64,000 nucleotides of DNA, taken from positions 48,201 through 112,200 of the forward strand of contig JADHUV010000004.1 of NCBI GenBank assembly GCA_016784355.1. The letters are read 5' to 3'. How positions within the stretch are numbered: the stretch's first letter is position 1; each line of letters starts with the position of its first letter. A model generated the notes under the pieces. That model made no database searches, was not told the DNA's origin, and saw only the letters and a list, made by a program, of their open reading frames with translations. Both the position numbers and the translations under genes were made by a program. This DNA comes from Nitrospira sp. (GTDB taxonomy: Bacteria > Nitrospirota > Thermodesulfovibrionia > UBA6902). This document shows positions 3,655-29,956 of this stretch, one piece after another.

Positions 3655-3935
3655 TGAGAATTCCTCAGACATGGCTGCCGATAATGGCAAAAGAGATTAT
3701 CAAGAGCCTTATTGCGCGCAAACTTGTTGAGTGCAACGAGTCTGAGGATCACGTTATCAGTATGCTGCAGGAGATCATGCTGCAGGAGCTTATGGTAGAG
3801 GATACGCTCAATGATGAAGTAAGAGAGATGCTTCAGCAGTATGATGCTGAGATAGAAAAGGGGCACCTTGATTACCGCAGTCTTTTTGAAATGACAAAAA
3901 AGAAGTTGATCCGGGACAGGAATATCATAGTATGA
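3654..3935 (+). CDS. DUF507-like small protein
   Basis: Charged 93-aa protein, paired with a similar downstream ORF. The DUF507 assignment is from memory. Confidence 0.5.
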   Translation: MRIPQTWLPIMAKEIIKSLIARKLVECNESEDHVISMLQEIMLQELMVEDTLNDEVREMLQQYDAEIEKGHLDYRSLFEMTKKKLIRDRNIIV

Positions 3936-5398: not shown

Positions 5399-5678
5399 AT
5401 GATTTACAGAACCATCTATGATTATACGGCTATGGCTCTTAGTGGAATACATACTTTTGCAGAGCCTGCCTTCCGGGATGGTTTTGACATAAAACAGCTG
5501 ACTGCTTTCATGATTAATGTCATCATATATCTTCGGTTTAGTCAGCGATCCTCTCGCGACGCTTAAGTGTGCCAATGAGATGAGACGACGCGGGCTTGGT
5601 GAGGATTTAATCAAAAAGGTTTTTTATAATAACCCTGCCGGTTTCCTCGGCCAGAGTCCGAAATTTCAGGCGAGTTGA
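5399..5678 (+). pseudogene. Remnant of an amidohydrolase-family gene; only about 90 C-terminal codons remain, in two overlapping frames
   Basis: C-terminal-type motif LIKKVFYNNPAGFLG. No plausible full-length ORF exists here. Confidence 0.25.
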
Positions 5679-5706
5679 TTTTTTTCAAAGAGACGGTTAT
5701 TAATGC

Positions 5707-6069
5707 TTAAATAGTTTTAGCAAACTCCTCTATCAGACGCAGCGTCCTGCCGAAATCCTCTCTGGCCACTTCATTTATAATGACCAGTCCAAGTATGCAG
5801 CCGCCGGCGAAGACGGTAAAAAAAGCCTGTTCCTGGTGATCAAAATTCAATGACTCTATATAGCCGGTCATTAACTCTACATCCAGCTCACTAGGATCGT
5901 CGACTTCTGACATCTGTTCTCTTCCCAGTTCCATAAGCTGCATCGCAAGGTCCTGAGGGGAGAGATCATTATCGAGTTCTTCAAGATTCTTCATGATAGT
6001 ACGGAAATCAGGAAGCAGGGTTGTGCAGAAGTTATGTACTATTTCATTAGGCATGGCGTGCGAATTCAT
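5707..6069 (-). CDS. Hypothetical protein
   Basis: 120-aa ORF with no recognisable motif. Confidence 0.4.
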   Translation of the reverse strand: MNSHAMPNEIVHNFCTTLLPDFRTIMKNLEELDNDLSPQDLAMQLMELGREQMSEVDDPSELDVELMTGYIESLNFDHQEQAFFTVFAGGCILGLVIINEVAREDFGRTLRLIEEFAKTI

Positions 6070-6101
6070 TTTCTTGTTCTCCTGTAAATATGTTATGCCC
6101 T

Positions 6102-6413
6102 CTAAAACATCCCTCTACTGTGTTCATCATCATGACAATGCACACAGAGATTTTCCCAGTTAGAACCATCGGGCGGATTATTCTGATGATCTCCATCTTT
6201 GTGGTGTACAGTTAGAAGTGTCAAATTATCAGGCTCAAATTCCCTTCCGCATTTCGCGCATATAAGTCCATGGATTTTTAGGGACTTTGCACGATAGTCA
6301 CTCTTTGGAGGCCCACCCTGTGTCAATGCCTTCACAATATCCGCAACTGACCGGGAATCGCTGTTATCTGTTGACGGCTTCTTAACGACTTTGAATGGTT
6401 TATTGTTTCGCAT
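6102..6413 (-). CDS. HNH endonuclease, YajD-like
   Basis: Zinc-finger pair CAKCG...HHKDGDHQNN...CVHCHDDEH. Confidence 0.7.
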   Translation of the reverse strand: MRNNKPFKVVKKPSTDNSDSRSVADIVKALTQGGPPKSDYRAKSLKIHGLICAKCGREFEPDNLTLLTVHHKDGDHQNNPPDGSNWENLCVHCHDDEHSRGMF

Positions 6414-6499
6414 ATTGTTCTATAGCATAGGTGTCAACAGGGCATCAGGTCAAGGGGTATTATATTCAGGAGTTCCCCCAATTTTCGGTTCTTTGTCGT

Positions 6500-6523
6500 C
6501 ATTCCCGCGAAGGCGGGAATTCA
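6500..6523. repeat. Inverted copy of the 24-nt core (CGTCATTCCCGCGAAGGCGGGAAT) of the 6840-7060 repeat
   Basis: It is the exact reverse complement of ATTCCCGCCTTCGCGGGAATGACG found in the tandem units. Confidence 0.8.
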
Positions 6524-6529
6524 ATCTTC

Positions 6530-6823
6530 TTACATTGTCAAGCTATCATATAAGTCCGCCCATTCAGGGTTATGTTCCTCAATAAGCCTGAGCTTCCATA
6601 CCCGATTCCATTTTTTCATTTGTCTTTCCCTCAGTAACGCTGTCTCGGTATCTCGTGCTATCTCATAGTAAACGAGCCGGTATATCCCATATTTCTTTGT
6701 GAAACCATCGACTTGGCCGTTTTTATTTTCATAAACCCGTTTCATTAGATTCGAGGTTACACCTATATACAAAGTCCCTCTTCTTTGGCTGGCCATGATG
6801 TAAATGTAAAAGTTCTCTTTCAT
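6530..6823 (-). CDS. GIY-YIG domain nuclease, UPF0213-like small protein
   Basis: YIYIMASQRRGTLYIGVTSNLMKRVYEN matches the GIY-YIG N-terminal motif. Confidence 0.75.
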   Translation of the reverse strand: MKENFYIYIMASQRRGTLYIGVTSNLMKRVYENKNGQVDGFTKKYGIYRLVYYEIARDTETALLRERQMKKWNRVWKLRLIEEHNPEWADLYDSLTM

Positions 6824-6839
6824 ATTCCTGATGATATAG

Positions 6840-7060
6840 CAATAATGGATTCCCGCCTTCGCGGGAATGACGCAATAATTACCGTGCTGACATCAGAGAG
6901 TAAAAGTGGTTTCCCGCCTTCTCGGGAATGACGCAACAATTACCATGCCGACATCAGAGAGTAAAAATGGTTTCCCTCCTTCGCGGGAATGACGCAACAA
7001 TTACCGTGCCGACATCAGAGAGTAATAATGGATTCCCTCCTTCGCGGGAATGACGGCTTA
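6840..7060. repeat. Tandem repeat of roughly 62 bp, about 3.6 copies. Each copy carries the palindrome TTCCCGC-CTTC-GCGGGAA.
   Basis: Direct reading: the units at about 6848, 6910, 6972 and 7034 are near-identical over their full length. Confidence 0.85.
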
Positions 7061-7239
7061 TATTAGCTCTTTGCCTGCAAAAAGTTCCCCCATTTTTCTA
7101 AAAAAGACCAACGACCACTTGATAGCATCCGTTTCCCTTTATCTCTTATAGTCTTATCTTCAGACGAACACTATTTCTGGGGGAACTCCTGGTATTATAT
7201 TCGGAATGATTAGGCGGTCAAGATTTCGTAGTAGTATTT

Positions 7240-7536
7240 CTATTCATGTAAGCTGGTTCGGCAATGTCTGCATATGCGTTTATTAATATCTCTGCCAAGA
7301 TACTTTTTGCATGCGGGGCATCTCCAGTTCAAGGCGGTAAAATTAATAAAGGCAACTATTACAACCAGTTGAGCTACAGATATAGTGTGTCCTGTGTACT
7401 CTCCAAAAATATCCGGATGTTTATACACCACGGCCAGCAGTACTATAAGAAGAAGTGTTATAGCTATAGCAAATATTTGGCGCCTCTGGCGGATCAGGAA
7501 TTCATTCATAATTATGTTTTCATTCTTTGTTTTCAT
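7240..7536 (-). CDS. Small membrane protein with a C-terminal zinc-ribbon-like CxxC...CxxC
   Basis: One transmembrane stretch, then CPACKK...CRHC. Confidence 0.35.
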   Translation of the reverse strand: MKTKNENIIMNEFLIRQRRQIFAIAITLLLIVLLAVVYKHPDIFGEYTGHTISVAQLVVIVAFINFTALNWRCPACKKYLGRDINKRICRHCRTSLHE

Positions 7537-7830
7537 GCTTGCTATTATAATATCCCCGGTGAATCTTTTGTTGACAGGTATGGATTCAAGCTGAATTTAA
7601 AATAAGTTCACACTCTGTGAGGGTTTACGTTTAAAAGAAAAGTGCCTCTGGATTTAGTGTGATAGTCACTGAAAGCGTATACAATCGGCCTTCCTGTCTG
7701 GCTGTTTAAGCCGCTTCTGAATCCTTCTTTCACATCTGACCAAGACAGGATTTAAGAAAGAAACCTTAAATATGAAGTCTTTTATCTCAGAACTCTTTGT
7801 GGCCTCTGTGGTTTAATCATTTTTTTCAGA

Positions 7831-8301
7831 TTAATCCATATCTCTGATTCGTAGCCCAAGTTCCTTTTCCGCATGTTCACTGCCGTTTTCTGCGGCAACT
7901 TTCAGCCACGACAGCGCTTCCTGCTCATTAATATCAGTCCCGAGACCGAGAGAATAAATCTGATACATCATGAACTGGGCATGTGGGTGGTCTTGTTGGG
8001 CGGCCAGGCGATAAAGGTTTCGTGCTTTTTCGAAGTCTTGCGCCACATAATTGCCCATAAGATACAACTCGGCCAATAGTACATGGCCGGAGGCAATATT
8101 ATCATTGGAACTTCTTGAACACCAGTAAAATGCCTGTTCGTAATTCGGGCCCCTTGAAATATTTCCATAACTGTATTCATGACAGAAATTCTGCGTTAAA
8201 AAGCTGCTGTTCCGGATGTCCATATGTGTATTCTTCAGGCCGCATCCCGTCAGGATGAAAGCCAGCAAGGCCATACAGATAAGATATTTTTTAATATACA
8301 T
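7831..8301 (-). CDS. Sel1/TPR-repeat lipoprotein
   Basis: Lipobox LTGCG, and Sel1-like repeats of the form HAQFMMYQIY...G. Confidence 0.55.
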   Translation of the reverse strand: MYIKKYLICMALLAFILTGCGLKNTHMDIRNSSFLTQNFCHEYSYGNISRGPNYEQAFYWCSRSSNDNIASGHVLLAELYLMGNYVAQDFEKARNLYRLAAQQDHPHAQFMMYQIYSLGLGTDINEQEALSWLKVAAENGSEHAEKELGLRIRDMD

Positions 8302-26820: not shown

Positions 26821-28692
26821 ATGAGGAAGTTCAGCACACGAAATTTATTGATTATTAATAAGGCCCGGCAATGCCTTTTTGTTATAGGTCTGTTATTGGC
26901 CTTCACAATACCGGCATCCGCCTCAATCCCCGGCAGCATCAATTATCAGGGATATCTATCTGACGGCGCTGGTAATCCGGTCAGTGCTACTGTCAGCATT
27001 ACATTCTCTTTGTATAATGTAGACACGGCCGGAACATTTCTATGGACCGAGGCCCAATCGGTTGCAGTAATCAGCGGAGTCTTTGATGTAACGCTGGGGA
27101 ATCCTGCGAACCCATTGCCTGCAGGATTGTTTGAAGATCCTTTATGGCTTGGTATTAATGTGGCCGGTGATGGCGAGATGGTTCCGCGAAAAGCCCTGGC
27201 CAGTGTTGCATTTTCCTTCAAGGCCAATGATGCGTATACGGTCGGCGGCCGAACTGCGGCCAGCCTGGATCAGGCTGATCATGTATTGGATACAGGTAAT
27301 CCGCATCACATAACTACAGCACAGCTTCCTGCTGATATCACGCGCGACAGTGAGATTATGCCCATTGTACTGCTAAGAGATGGCCCCGGCTCTACACTTG
27401 ATGCCGATACAATTGATGGTCTTGATTCGAGCGATTTTTTTAATACAGCCAGTGATTATGGCCGGTATAAAGTTGCTAATGATCTCTACGAAGGAACCTC
27501 CACCCTGAGCTTTAAGTATGTTAATACGACCGGAGATACAATGACCGGCAATCTTAGTGTTATGGAACGTGTTGGGATTGGCATAGAAACTCCTTTGGCC
27601 AGGCTTCATGTACTGGAAAGCAATACGTCAGCTTCTGGACTGTTTGAAACCGGAGTCTCACAAAACTGGATCGGGTTTTCTACTTCCAATGGTTATCAAG
27701 GTTACGCCGGAGTCTTTTCCGGTGCTGATGATATAGAGATAGGGACCGGTCTGGGTAATACTACGGGCAGTGTAAATCTGGCCATAGGTACAATTCCAAA
27801 GCTCACGGTTAATCAGGAAGGCAATGTCGGCATTGGAACAACAAGTCCTGTTTACGGTCTGGACGTGCGCGGCAGTTCCAGCGGCTATCTTGGTTATTTT
27901 TTGAATGACAATAATTCAGTCGGGACAAGCAGTGATGCCTTTGGTATATTCGCCAGCGGTGATGCCTACGGCACAGTGACCGGCGAGGCTGTAGGTGGTG
28001 CCTTTACCGCTTACGGAGGAAGTTCGCAGGGGACTGCCTATGGAGTTCAGGTTTTCACAAATGCATATGGTTCCGCTGATGCGTATGGGGTCTATAGCGA
28101 TGCTACCGGCGGCTCAACGACCGGCAGAGAGTTCGCATTTTTTGGAAGAGGCAATAGTATATTTACCGGTAAGGTTGGAATCGGTACTGATGATCCTCAG
28201 GCAAAACTGCATGTTGATGGTCAGATAAAGATACAGGGCGGCTATTATGCAAATGGTGTGCTTTCATCCTTTGGTTACCACGTCAATGATTGTGACGGAG
28301 TAACTGAAAAGTTTGTACATATGGCTGCCCAGGGCGGCGTGGACTACGGCCTGTGCATGGAGAAAAATGAGCGTCCTGCTCAGGTATGGGGTGATGCATC
28401 TGAGACCTGTAAAATGCAGGGAAAGCGCCTGCCCGATTATGTTGAGTGGAGGAAGGCCTGTGACGGCTATACGTCTGGAGCGCCAGGCACACCGGATCCA
28501 TTTTATTCCAACATAACCGGCAACTATGAATGGGCTTCGTCTCGTCCCTCTGTACTTAACAGCGATGGAATGCGCGGACCATCTTCTGTATTAGCAGGGA
28601 TGCTAAGCTGCGAGACAACGTATGCAGACCGGGTCGATAGAGGCAATCATGTTGATAGCAGATATCAATACACCTTCCGATGCGTTCGATAA
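26821..28692 (+). CDS. Secreted protein with fibre-like VGIGT-x-P-x-AxLHV repeats and a C-terminal FGE-sulfatase / C-type-lectin-fold domain
   Basis: Signal peptide present. Repeats are VGIGIETPLARLHV, VGIGTTSPVYGLDV and VGIGTDDPQAKLHV. The C-terminus reads GKRLPDYVEWRKAC...YEWASS...FRCVR. Confidence 0.6.
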   Translation: MRKFSTRNLLIINKARQCLFVIGLLLAFTIPASASIPGSINYQGYLSDGAGNPVSATVSITFSLYNVDTAGTFLWTEAQSVAVISGVFDVTLGNPANPLPAGLFEDPLWLGINVAGDGEMVPRKALASVAFSFKANDAYTVGGRTAASLDQADHVLDTGNPHHITTAQLPADITRDSEIMPIVLLRDGPGSTLDADTIDGLDSSDFFNTASDYGRYKVANDLYEGTSTLSFKYVNTTGDTMTGNLSVMERVGIGIETPLARLHVLESNTSASGLFETGVSQNWIGFSTSNGYQGYAGVFSGADDIEIGTGLGNTTGSVNLAIGTIPKLTVNQEGNVGIGTTSPVYGLDVRGSSSGYLGYFLNDNNSVGTSSDAFGIFASGDAYGTVTGEAVGGAFTAYGGSSQGTAYGVQVFTNAYGSADAYGVYSDATGGSTTGREFAFFGRGNSIFTGKVGIGTDDPQAKLHVDGQIKIQGGYYANGVLSSFGYHVNDCDGVTEKFVHMAAQGGVDYGLCMEKNERPAQVWGDASETCKMQGKRLPDYVEWRKACDGYTSGAPGTPDPFYSNITGNYEWASSRPSVLNSDGMRGPSSVLAGMLSCETTYADRVDRGNHVDSRYQYTFRCVR

Positions 28693-28709
28693 GAGTGCAT
28701 TATTAAAAG

Positions 28710-29530
28710 CGAATAACGAATATCGAACAAGGAATGTCGAATGATGAAGTGAGCGGCGTGGAAGAATATGATGCTAATTTTTTACTTCGAGATTCGAAAT
28801 GCGTCAATCGATATTCGAAATTCTCCTTTTTTGATTCACTATTTAAAGACTGACAGAAACAGCGAATAACGAATATCGAACAAGGAATGTCGAATGATGA
28901 AGTGAGTGGCGTGGAAGAATATGATGCTAATTTTTTACTTCGACATTCGAAATTCGTCAATCGATATTCGAAATTCTCCTTTTTTTGATTCACTATTTAA
29001 AGACTGATAGAACCAGCGAATAACGAATATCGAACAAGGAATCTCGAATGATGAAGTGAGCGGCGTGGAAGAATATGATGCTAATTTTTTTACTTCGAGA
29101 TTCGAAATTCGTCAATCGATATTCGAAATTCTCCTTTTTTTGATTCCCTATTTAAAAACTGATAATAACAGCGAATAACGAATATCGAACAAGGAATGTC
29201 GAATGATGAAGTGAGCGGCGTGGAAGAATATGATGCTAATTTTTTACTTCGACATTCGAAATTCGTCAATCGATATTCGAAATTCTCCTTTTTTGATTCA
29301 CTATTTAAAGACTGATAGAACCAGCGAATAACGAATATCGAACAAGGAATGTCGAATGATGAAGTGAGCGGCGTGGAAGAATATGATGCTAATTTTTTAC
29401 TTCGAGATTCGAAATTCGTCAATCGATATTCGAAATTCTCCTTTTTTTGATTCCCTATTTAAAAACTGATAATAACAGCGAATAACGAATATCGAACAAG
29501 GAATGTCGAATGATGAAGTCAACGGCGTGG
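28710..29530. repeat. Tandem array of about six copies of a unit of roughly 152 bp, of the same family as dispersed copies elsewhere in the window
   Basis: The unit recurs at about 28710, 28860, 29010, 29165, 29320 and 29465. Each unit contains inverted arms CGAATATCGA...GAATGTCGAA / TTCGACATTC...TCGATATTCG. Confidence 0.85.
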
Positions 29531-29665
29531 CAGATGCCTGTCGACCGTTGTTTTACATTATTATTTTATATAGAAAATAAATATGCCTGATCATCGCTTT
29601 TTCTGTTACAATTACAACGATCTCAAAAGCAATCTCAATAATTACTTATCAATGCTAGAGGATAC

Positions 29666-29956
29666 ATGACAGACAAGAATAAGAAATGCATTATTATCAC
29701 TGTAATCGGCAAAGATGAAGTCGGAATCGTTGCCAAGGTTGCCACTGCGCTGGCTGAAGATAGAATCAATATTATTGATCTTAATCAAAAGATACTTGGT
29801 GACGAAATTTTCGCCATGACGCTGCTGGCCGACAGGGTAGGCTCCAATCTTTCTCTGCCGGAAATAACGGAGAAACTTAAGGCGTCCGTTAAAGGCATGT
29901 CTCTTGAGGTCACGGTTCAGGACTCGGAAGTTTTTCAATATATGCATAGGGTGTGA
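29666..29956 (+). CDS. ACT-domain protein of the UPF0237 family
   Basis: [28 protein letters not shown] fold. It is paired with the UPF0210 gene downstream. Confidence 0.7.

Follow-up and report, generated by a model that had tools for sequence, protein, structure and literature searches.

A probable ssn cassette in a Nitrospirota genome: an Ssn-family GIY-YIG endonuclease gene flanked by inverted copies of its hairpin motif

We analyzed a 64,000-nucleotide stretch of a Nitrospirota metagenome-assembled genome (MAG) deposited as Nitrospira sp. (assembly GCA_016784355.1, contig JADHUV010000004.1, positions 48,201 to 112,200 of the forward strand), hereafter the window, in which a small gene for a GIY-YIG nuclease lies between inverted copies of a hairpin-forming repeat. 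The locus is very likely an ssn cassette, that is, the gene for an Ssn-family (SsnA-like) endonuclease flanked, in inverted orientation, by the hairpin motif cognate to the enzyme. This arrangement has already been published by Chenal et al. (2025, Nat Commun 16:2388, PMC11893778), and it recurs in most of the homologous loci that we sampled. The window holds a Nitrospirota instance of it, the features of which are collected in Table 1.

The product of the 97-amino-acid (aa) open reading frame (ORF) matches Pfam PF01541 (GIY-YIG) over residues 5 to 77 (E = 2e-12), the sole domain found, in keeping with the single-domain proteins of about 90-150 aa that make up the Ssn family, and an AGGAA ribosome-binding site lies immediately 5' of its ATG. 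In the account of Chenal et al., SsnA is a 94-aa GIY-YIG protein whose target is a motif named the Neisseria Transformation Sequence (NTS); binding requires that the motif be single-stranded DNA (ssDNA) and is confined to one of the two strands. Cleavage falls a few nucleotides upstream of the NTS and depends on Mg2+, the Y6A, Y17A, and E64A variants are inactive, and neither double-stranded DNA (dsDNA) nor RNA is a substrate. When we compared the window protein with the 94-aa SsnA orthologue of Neisseria gonorrhoeae (PLSDB record NZ_CP119142.1, L215), the two were 53% identical over 86 aa (BLASTP E = 1e-36). The tblastn comparison with the same orthologue in this record gave E = 7e-26, and the window protein passes the cut-off that PMC11893778 gives for SsnA homologues (tblastn E < 1e-10). 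The gonococcal orthologue has Y6, Y17, and E64 exactly at the positions published for SsnA, and the alignment pairs these residues with Y8, Y19, and E66 of the window protein, positions that are invariant across our homologue alignment (A1). Y8, Y19, and E66 are the predicted catalytic residues.

NCBIfam contained no model for the window GIY-YIG protein, and the PDB contained no Ssn structure, its nearest entries being UPF0213 (1ZG2, Bacillus halodurans BH0048; E = 1.4e-3) and UvrC. UPF0213/YhbQ, the closest solved structure by sequence, is likewise a small stand-alone GIY-YIG protein; it is only distantly related, however, and has no counterpart of the C-terminal motif KKWNRxWKxxLIEExNPxW that the Ssn clade carries.

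The gene is bracketed by the hairpin-bearing repeat as the earlier note on this DNA had claimed, with one copy of the core CGTCATTCCCGCGAAGGCGGGAAT downstream and four reverse complements upstream; none is expected from shuffled sequence. The distances given in that note need correction, since the downstream core lies 9 nt (not 7 nt) from the ssn stop codon, and the nearest upstream core lies 25 nt before the ATG, with the edge of the tandem array 20 nt (not 17 nt) from it. The hairpin that it had recognized within the core was borne out, having an 8-bp stem (ATTCCCGC / GCGGGAAT) and a 4-nt loop. The upstream copies read CGTC-ATTCCCGC-GAAG-GCGGGAAT-CCA, and the downstream copy ends in TCA instead. 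The ssn gene is thus flanked on both sides by inverted NTS-type hairpins with perfect tag and stem: both gene-proximal copies have a perfect 8-bp stem and fold as ssDNA at about -9 kcal/mol (-8.9 kcal/mol for the proximal 5' copy), whereas the three distal copies of the array have mismatched stems and fold at -4.2 to -5.4 kcal/mol, inside the range of shuffled sequences. No further core or solo NTS lies elsewhere in the 64-kb window.

The motif itself belongs to a known family. Di Nocera, De Gregorio, and Rocco (2013, BMC Genomics 14:522, PMC3733652) described CGTC-1 tagged repetitive extragenic palindromes (REPs), in which a CGTC tag precedes an 8-bp stem that begins with AT and encloses a 4-nt loop, and a CCA tail follows; each of these features is present in the window motif. 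The window hairpin fits the CGTC-1 REP, which is the same element as the Neisseria dRS3, the NTS, and the SRM, with RPE-6 of Rickettsia as an equivalent. The proximal 5' copy is the sole match in the window to the published SRM pattern (0.24 expected from shuffles) and differs by one mismatch from the strict NTS consensus, CGTCATTCCCGCGMAVGCGGGAATCYRG (PMC11893778). As in the CGTC-1 REPs, for which inverted dimers were common in the loci that we sampled, tag, stem, loop, and tail are all recognizable in the window; unlike these high-copy repeats, the window motif occurs only at the ssn locus within 64 kb, and it brackets a cognate nuclease gene, whereas the 2013 survey found no transposase or associated gene for CGTC REPs. 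Chenal et al. report a spatial association, seen across bacteria, of the NTS with a single gene, ssnA (NMB0047; CDD cd10448). The window locus resembles that system in its ~95-aa single-domain GIY-YIG protein, its Tyr/Tyr/Glu residues, its motif (CGTCATTCCCGCG...GCGGGAATCC), and its inverted NTS-gene-NTS bracket.

The association of gene and hairpin was examined from both directions. For the hairpin, one genome per species was scanned for GTCATTCCCGC-N4-GCGGGAAT, which yielded at least 120 loci spread over more than 10 phyla (Bacteroidota, all proteobacterial classes, Chloroflexota, Planctomycetota, Nitrospirota, candidate phyla radiation groups, Elusimicrobia, Neisseria, and others). Among the matches listed, 174 hairpins were sharply delimited on the 5' side by the GTC tag and shared a conserved CCA-type tail; for 97 of the 174, a second hairpin in inverted orientation stood no more than 220 nt away, the two being separated by unrelated sequence. 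No ssn gene lay nearby in 118 of the 120 listed loci. The remaining two, from Methylotenera (L045) and Sphingorhabdus (L103), carried an ssn homologue, bracketed in both cases by inverted hairpins. The 839 kb of DNA sampled in this way contained three GIY-YIG genes in total, two of which were these bracketed Ssn-type genes. The third, in a Nitrospirae MAG (L034, 6630-6956), is YhbQ/UPF0213-like and has no flanking CGTC hairpins, so the hairpin association is specific to the Ssn clade rather than general to small GIY-YIG genes. An exact NTS-type hairpin was also seen at 1512-1534 of L096, a contig assigned by binning to a Nanoarchaeota archaeon MAG; the binning may be at fault, or the motif may occur, rarely, in archaea.

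For the gene, we took 80 metagenomic loci with homologues 53 to 64% identical to the window protein and detected hairpins as a GTC tag followed by a perfect 8- to 9-bp stem. A correctly oriented hairpin was present within 200 bp upstream of ssn in 48 of 75 loci, and 52 of 77 had one within 200 bp on the downstream side; hairpins stood on both sides in 38 of 72, whereas wrongly oriented hairpins occurred at only 7 (upstream) and 6 (downstream) loci. Hairpin density was 4.1 per kb near ssn versus 0.12 per kb at distances above 400 bp, a 34-fold local enrichment, and the typical gaps were ~15 nt from hairpin to start codon and ~9 nt after the stop codon. The earlier note had considered that the palindrome might be a genome-wide REP at intergenic sites unrelated to GIY-YIG genes. 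Outside this genome it is indeed a REP found at many intergenic sites, mostly away from ssn, but this does not break the link between gene and motif, because repeat and nuclease form a cognate pair: the palindrome is a REP and also the cognate site of the nuclease.

Hairpins bracketed ssn in 13 of 35 loci on IMG/VR contigs as well. There, a divergent Ssn clade (41 to 48% identity; L239-L244, L233, and L237) carries a different hairpin type, GTCACCCCGGACTTGTTCCGGGGT, which reads GTCACCCCGG-ACTTGT-TCCGGGGT and has a 6-nt loop. The comparison suggests that nuclease clade and hairpin site vary together, which is consistent with their co-evolution. In all, 39 Ssn relatives were found on IMG/VR contigs classed as viral, versus none in GenBank phages, which we searched for ssn homologues.

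By homology with SsnA, the window protein would bind its motif only in ssDNA folded as an 8-bp hairpin, and only on the strand reading 5'-CGTCATTCCC...; it would then cleave the bound strand on the 5' side of the CGTC tag, at a distance of a few nucleotides, by means of Mg2+ and Y8/Y19/E66. Given this offset and the inverted sites, the predicted cuts fall just outside each end of NTS-ssn-NTS, one near 6875 in the minus strand and the other near 6493 in the plus strand. We infer both the enzymatic activity and the cut positions of the window protein from what PMC11893778 reports for SsnA. Good substrates would be expected to be limited to the proximal 5' copy and possibly the 3' copy.

Several observations weigh against reading the locus as an intact Ssn/NTS system. 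Four of the five hairpin copies do not match the published SRM pattern. In the 3' copy, a T follows the palindrome in place of the C that Chenal et al. identify as the most important base for binding by N. meningitidis SsnA, and the stems are broken in three copies of the array; the window system may therefore be partly decayed, or its specificity may have shifted. Nor is a genome-wide role for the nuclease evident, as it is in Neisseria, since the 64 kb contain no other NTS. In contrast to the pathogenic Neisseria, which have hundreds of NTS, the window has no solo NTS and thus no sign of repeat expansion. It differs further from the published Ssn/NTS system in its Nitrospirota MAG host, in the amplification of its 5' site into a 61-bp array with three degenerate copies, in the missing C of its 3' site, and in the nesting of its cassette within 13-nt inverted and 12-nt direct repeats, which the parts of PMC11893778 consulted do not describe.

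The amplified 5' site was described in the earlier note as a four-copy tandem array with a 62-bp period. The copy number stands, but Tandem Repeats Finder placed the array at 6844-7055 with 3.5 copies of a 61-bp unit and 92% matches, the array consisting of the proximal NTS and the three degenerate copies. An assembly in Logan of run SRR12347134 (L001) contains the array base for base as in the window, which argues against an artefact of a single assembler; the L001 reads may or may not underlie the window MAG. Two close homologous loci, L207 and L202, whose proteins are 82% and 85% identical to that of the window, carry one NTS where the window has the array, and all three share the same leader between array and outer repeat. 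The excess of 183 bp in the window corresponds to three more units of NTS plus 33-nt spacer. Relative to L207 and L202, the array is specific to the window and represents a local amplification at the 5' end of the gene.

Same-orientation arrays of NTS-type hairpins also lie beside ssn in other loci (L122, 2202-2596 and 332-696; L174, 5-85; L186, 1162-3565), with periods of ~93 bp (L122), 29 bp (L174), and ~171 bp in the set, and with complex mixtures of two hairpin types. Since these loci also carry arrays, site amplification beside ssn is a recurrent phenomenon. A CRISPR array was considered for the window and rejected, as its 33-nt "spacers" are ~92% identical to one another and so reflect tandem duplication. 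We also rejected the reading of the hairpins as intrinsic terminators: they lack T-tracts, and the terminator scan flagged only one weak site, in a degenerate copy.

Outside the NTS pair, the cassette is enclosed in a 723-bp unit (6468-7190) bounded by a perfect 13-nt inverted repeat, AGGAGTTCCCCCA...TGGGGGAACTCCT, which is abutted on the outside by a perfect 12-nt direct repeat. Neither the 13-nt repeat nor the 12-mer has another copy in the 64 kb, and ssn is the only ORF of the unit. Judging from these repeats, the direct repeat looks like a target-site duplication (TSD), and together the repeats have the form expected if 723 bp had been inserted with a 12-bp TSD; a synthetic empty site can be written as ...TTGACC-N16-TATAATACC-CCTTGACC..., with one GGTATTATATTC. 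The -10 box of a putative promoter, recognized by consensus match, lies inside the left copy of the direct repeat. This promoter would read through the leader, the NTS array, and ssn, and probably on into the neighboring HNH nuclease gene yajD, since no terminator intervenes.

These outer repeats raise a competing explanation, namely, that ssn is the cargo of a separate, non-autonomous element with terminal inverted repeats (TIRs), the unit at 6468-7190, moved by a trans-acting transposase whose cut-and-paste or copy-and-paste activity made the 12-nt duplication GGTATTATATTC in the yajD promoter region. We consider this possible but less likely than not. The perfect inverted repeat, the perfect direct repeat abutting it, and the uniqueness of both in 64 kb are what such an element would leave, and the presence of the -10 box in the left direct repeat would be expected if a single promoter-proximal site had been duplicated. 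DNA similarity to L207 and L202 begins exactly at arm 2 of the inverted repeat, beyond the NTS, and in L207 it also stops exactly at the repeat; the flanks are unrelated. The leader is conserved in L207, and in L202 its 5' part is. On the other hand, the L207 cassette is bounded by the 13-nt repeat (at 3819 and 4355) without a flanking duplication, L202 and L203 have only the left arm, and no ssn-free copy or candidate transposase was found. There is no second unit in the window, related copies being confined to the surroundings of ssn in L207 and L202, and when viral contigs were scanned for the outer repeat plus leader, the one match lay in an unrelated coding region and is ascribed to chance. 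The unit resembles miniature inverted-repeat transposable elements (MITEs) and insertion sequences (ISs) in its outer TIR and flanking direct repeat, but it encodes no transposase, unlike an IS, and lacks the multiple dispersed copies of a MITE. When 36 other ssn loci were searched beyond their NTS pairs, direct or inverted repeats in the flanks showed no excess over shuffled pairings, so the TIR and TSD of the window are lineage-specific, and they constitute one clear instance.

The alternative that Ssn is itself the agent of movement is compatible with an ssn cassette and adds a claim about the purpose of the nuclease. According to this explanation, the locus is an autonomous selfish element analogous to a REPtron, in which Ssn mobilizes NTS-ssn-NTS as well as solo and dimeric CGTC REPs; hairpins would be nicked on ssDNA at replication forks, and host repair or template switching would copy the unit. 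We regard it as rather unlikely. In REPtrons, a gene for a REP-associated tyrosine transposase (RAYT) is combined with GTAG REPs or REPINs, and the resemblance is real in that a small gene stands between inverted hairpins that are dispersed elsewhere and its enzyme acts on an ssDNA hairpin. The RAYT is nonetheless an IS200-like Y1/HUH transposase that goes with a GTAG tag, whereas Ssn is a GIY-YIG hydrolase that goes with a CGTC tag, which makes REPtrons an architectural analogue only. GIY-YIG proteins are hydrolytic nucleases without a known strand-transfer activity or covalent intermediate, and we know of no transposition chemistry for them. The 2013 survey found no transposase for CGTC REPs (PMC3733652), which, together with the RAYT-like bracket, speaks for a role of Ssn in their movement, as does the high proportion of hairpins with an inverted partner, reminiscent of REP dimers or MITEs. 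The authors of PMC11893778 bring up the selfish-element reading themselves, likening NTS-ssnA-NTS to an insertion sequence and comparing it with REP/RAYT; the function reported there for Neisseria is instead host-level control of transformation, N. meningitidis SsnA lowering the integration of transforming DNA that carries NTS.

The genomic contexts of ssn also suggest movement. The four closest homologues (81 to 85% identity) lie in four unrelated neighborhoods, beside a UPF0102-family gene (PF02021) and Hachiman genes, in an ahpC/ftsZ gap, beside a DUF5678 gene, and beside dnaG, respectively. Elsewhere, the cassette interrupts gene pairs that are otherwise conserved, glyQ/glyS in a Methylotenera MAG (L045, 6147-6476) and sufB/sufC on plasmid AZO_p3 of Azospirillum lipoferum 4B (L216, NC_016623.1, 255506-255799), the latter with REP dimers on both sides, and many homologues are found on very short contigs, as is usual with repeats. 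Against a selfish element stand the absence of an empty/occupied site pair in our search among relatives of yajD and the lack of NTS expansion in the window; the 36 ssn loci without a TSD or extra inverted repeat beyond the NTS are neutral rather than supportive. The earlier note had proposed a compact selfish element. Its architecture is upheld as the canonical NTS-ssnA-NTS; the selfish part is plausible but unproven, its support being circumstantial. A further claim, that the ssn cassette itself is the unit of transposition, with the TIRs and the 12-nt TSD splitting the yajD promoter region and the same unit present in L207, a different Nitrospirota genome, at an unrelated site, is in our judgment doubtful. 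Most likely is the persistence of the cassette as a low-copy, horizontally mobile unit.

It is highly improbable that the gene is a free-standing GIY-YIG homing endonuclease of the I-TevI/Seg type that cuts dsDNA at a cognate allele next to incidental hairpins: a GIY-YIG domain in a small intergenic gene would fit, but the 97-aa protein has no DNA-binding extension or second domain, it is a homologue of SsnA, which according to PMC11893778 leaves dsDNA uncut, it has no match in GenBank phages, and a strict association with oriented hairpins is foreign to homing endonuclease genes. Ordinary REPs or terminators beside an unrelated gene, or an array that is an assembly artefact or CRISPR-like, can be dismissed as extremely improbable, since the widespread occurrence of the motif away from ssn and the superficially CRISPR-like alternation of 28-nt palindromic repeats with 33-nt spacers are outweighed by the 34-fold, orientation-specific enrichment beside ssn, the missing T-tracts, the near identity of the "spacers," and the identical array in the second assembly.

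Table 1. Features of the ssn locus and its surroundings (positions in the window)
Feature	Position	Strand	Remarks
ssn gene	6530..6823	-	97-aa single-domain GIY-YIG ORF, Ssn (SsnA) family
3' flanking NTS (CGTC-1 REP)	6497..6524	+	reads CGTCATTCCCGCGAAGGCGGGAATTCAA; core CGTCATTCCCGCGAAGGCGGGAAT at 6497-6520; tag and palindrome perfect
Proximal 5' NTS	6845..6872	-	gene strand reads CGTCATTCCCGCGAAGGCGGGAATCCAT; reverse complement of core at 6849-6872 (0 mismatches)
Three degenerate NTS copies	6906..7055	-	cores 6910-6933 (2 mismatches), 6971-6994 (2), 7032-7055 (1); 33-nt spacer after each
Leader	7056..7177	-	between outer inverted repeat and NTS array
Imperfect third copy of outer repeat	7080-7092		in leader; AAAAGTTCCCCCA
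Outer terminal inverted repeat, arm 1	6468..6480	+	AGGAGTTCCCCCA
Outer terminal inverted repeat, arm 2	7178..7190	-	AGGAGTTCCCCCA on minus strand
12-nt direct repeat, copy 1	6456..6467	+	GGTATTATATTC; abuts arm 1
12-nt direct repeat, copy 2	7191..7202	+	GGTATTATATTC; abuts arm 2
Sigma-70-like promoter	7194..7221	-	TTGACC, 16 nt, TATAAT; 11/12 consensus matches; points into cassette
HNH gene (YajD family)	6102-6413		adjoins ssn cassette; PF01844; NCBIfam YajD equivalog, 100.9 bits versus cut-off of 87

The HNH gene beside the cassette is of the YajD type, as the earlier note had recognized. Its nearest relatives are 72 to 79% identical; they are not syntenic, have other neighbors, and include none with an adjacent ssn, and they provided no informative empty site. 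Since these relatives have no ssn beside them, the adjacency of yajD and ssn is incidental, and YajD is a housekeeping-type gene. In the locus of the closest homologue (P0002; L202, 3751-7750), a tRNA-like sequence, recognized by eye, lies 3' of the cassette and is followed by a Hachiman-type pair (HamA plus helicase), so this region is possibly a variable or defence island. In N. gonorrhoeae L215 (NZ_CP119142.1), the SsnA orthologue is found amid many NTS copies. This record and NZ_CP119140.1, both 2.17 Mb, are labelled "plasmid" in PLSDB and look by their size like mislabelled chromosomes.

Rfam, searched permissively over 5500-8000 and with gathering thresholds over the whole window, returned nothing meaningful (best match FtrB, 22 bits versus a gathering score of 66). 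The window contains a second, unrelated tandem array at 28708-29534 (153-bp unit, 5.4 copies, 94% matches), which fills most of the gap between an ORF end at 28692 and ORF starts near 29640-29900; many inverted repeats of the type CGAATATCGA / TCGATATTCG lie within its unit.

Given the likely identity of the locus, a Nitrospirota MAG protein so far unannotated beyond "GIY-YIG nuclease family protein" can be assigned to the Ssn-type site-specific ssDNA endonucleases together with its recognition hairpins, and the palindrome around its gene to CGTC-1/NTS. Our survey independently reproduces the published association of ssn and hairpin on different data (metagenomes and IMG/VR) and adds the reverse statistic, that most hairpins lie far from ssn. 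The natural site variants, namely, the T in place of C after the palindrome and the stem mismatches, are ready substrates for tests of Ssn specificity. Studies of spread and site amplification may be guided by the clean TIR and 12-nt duplication, the glyQS and suf insertions, and the lineage-specific 5' array. If the cassette were itself the unit of transposition, the window would provide sequence-level evidence of NTS-ssn-NTS cassettes moving as discrete DNA segments, and the 61-bp array could have arisen as a side effect when Ssn nicked the 5' site of its own cassette. Such movement would bear on how a phylum-spanning pair of nuclease and hairpin has spread, a question raised in 2013 for CGTC REPs and in 2025 for Ssn.

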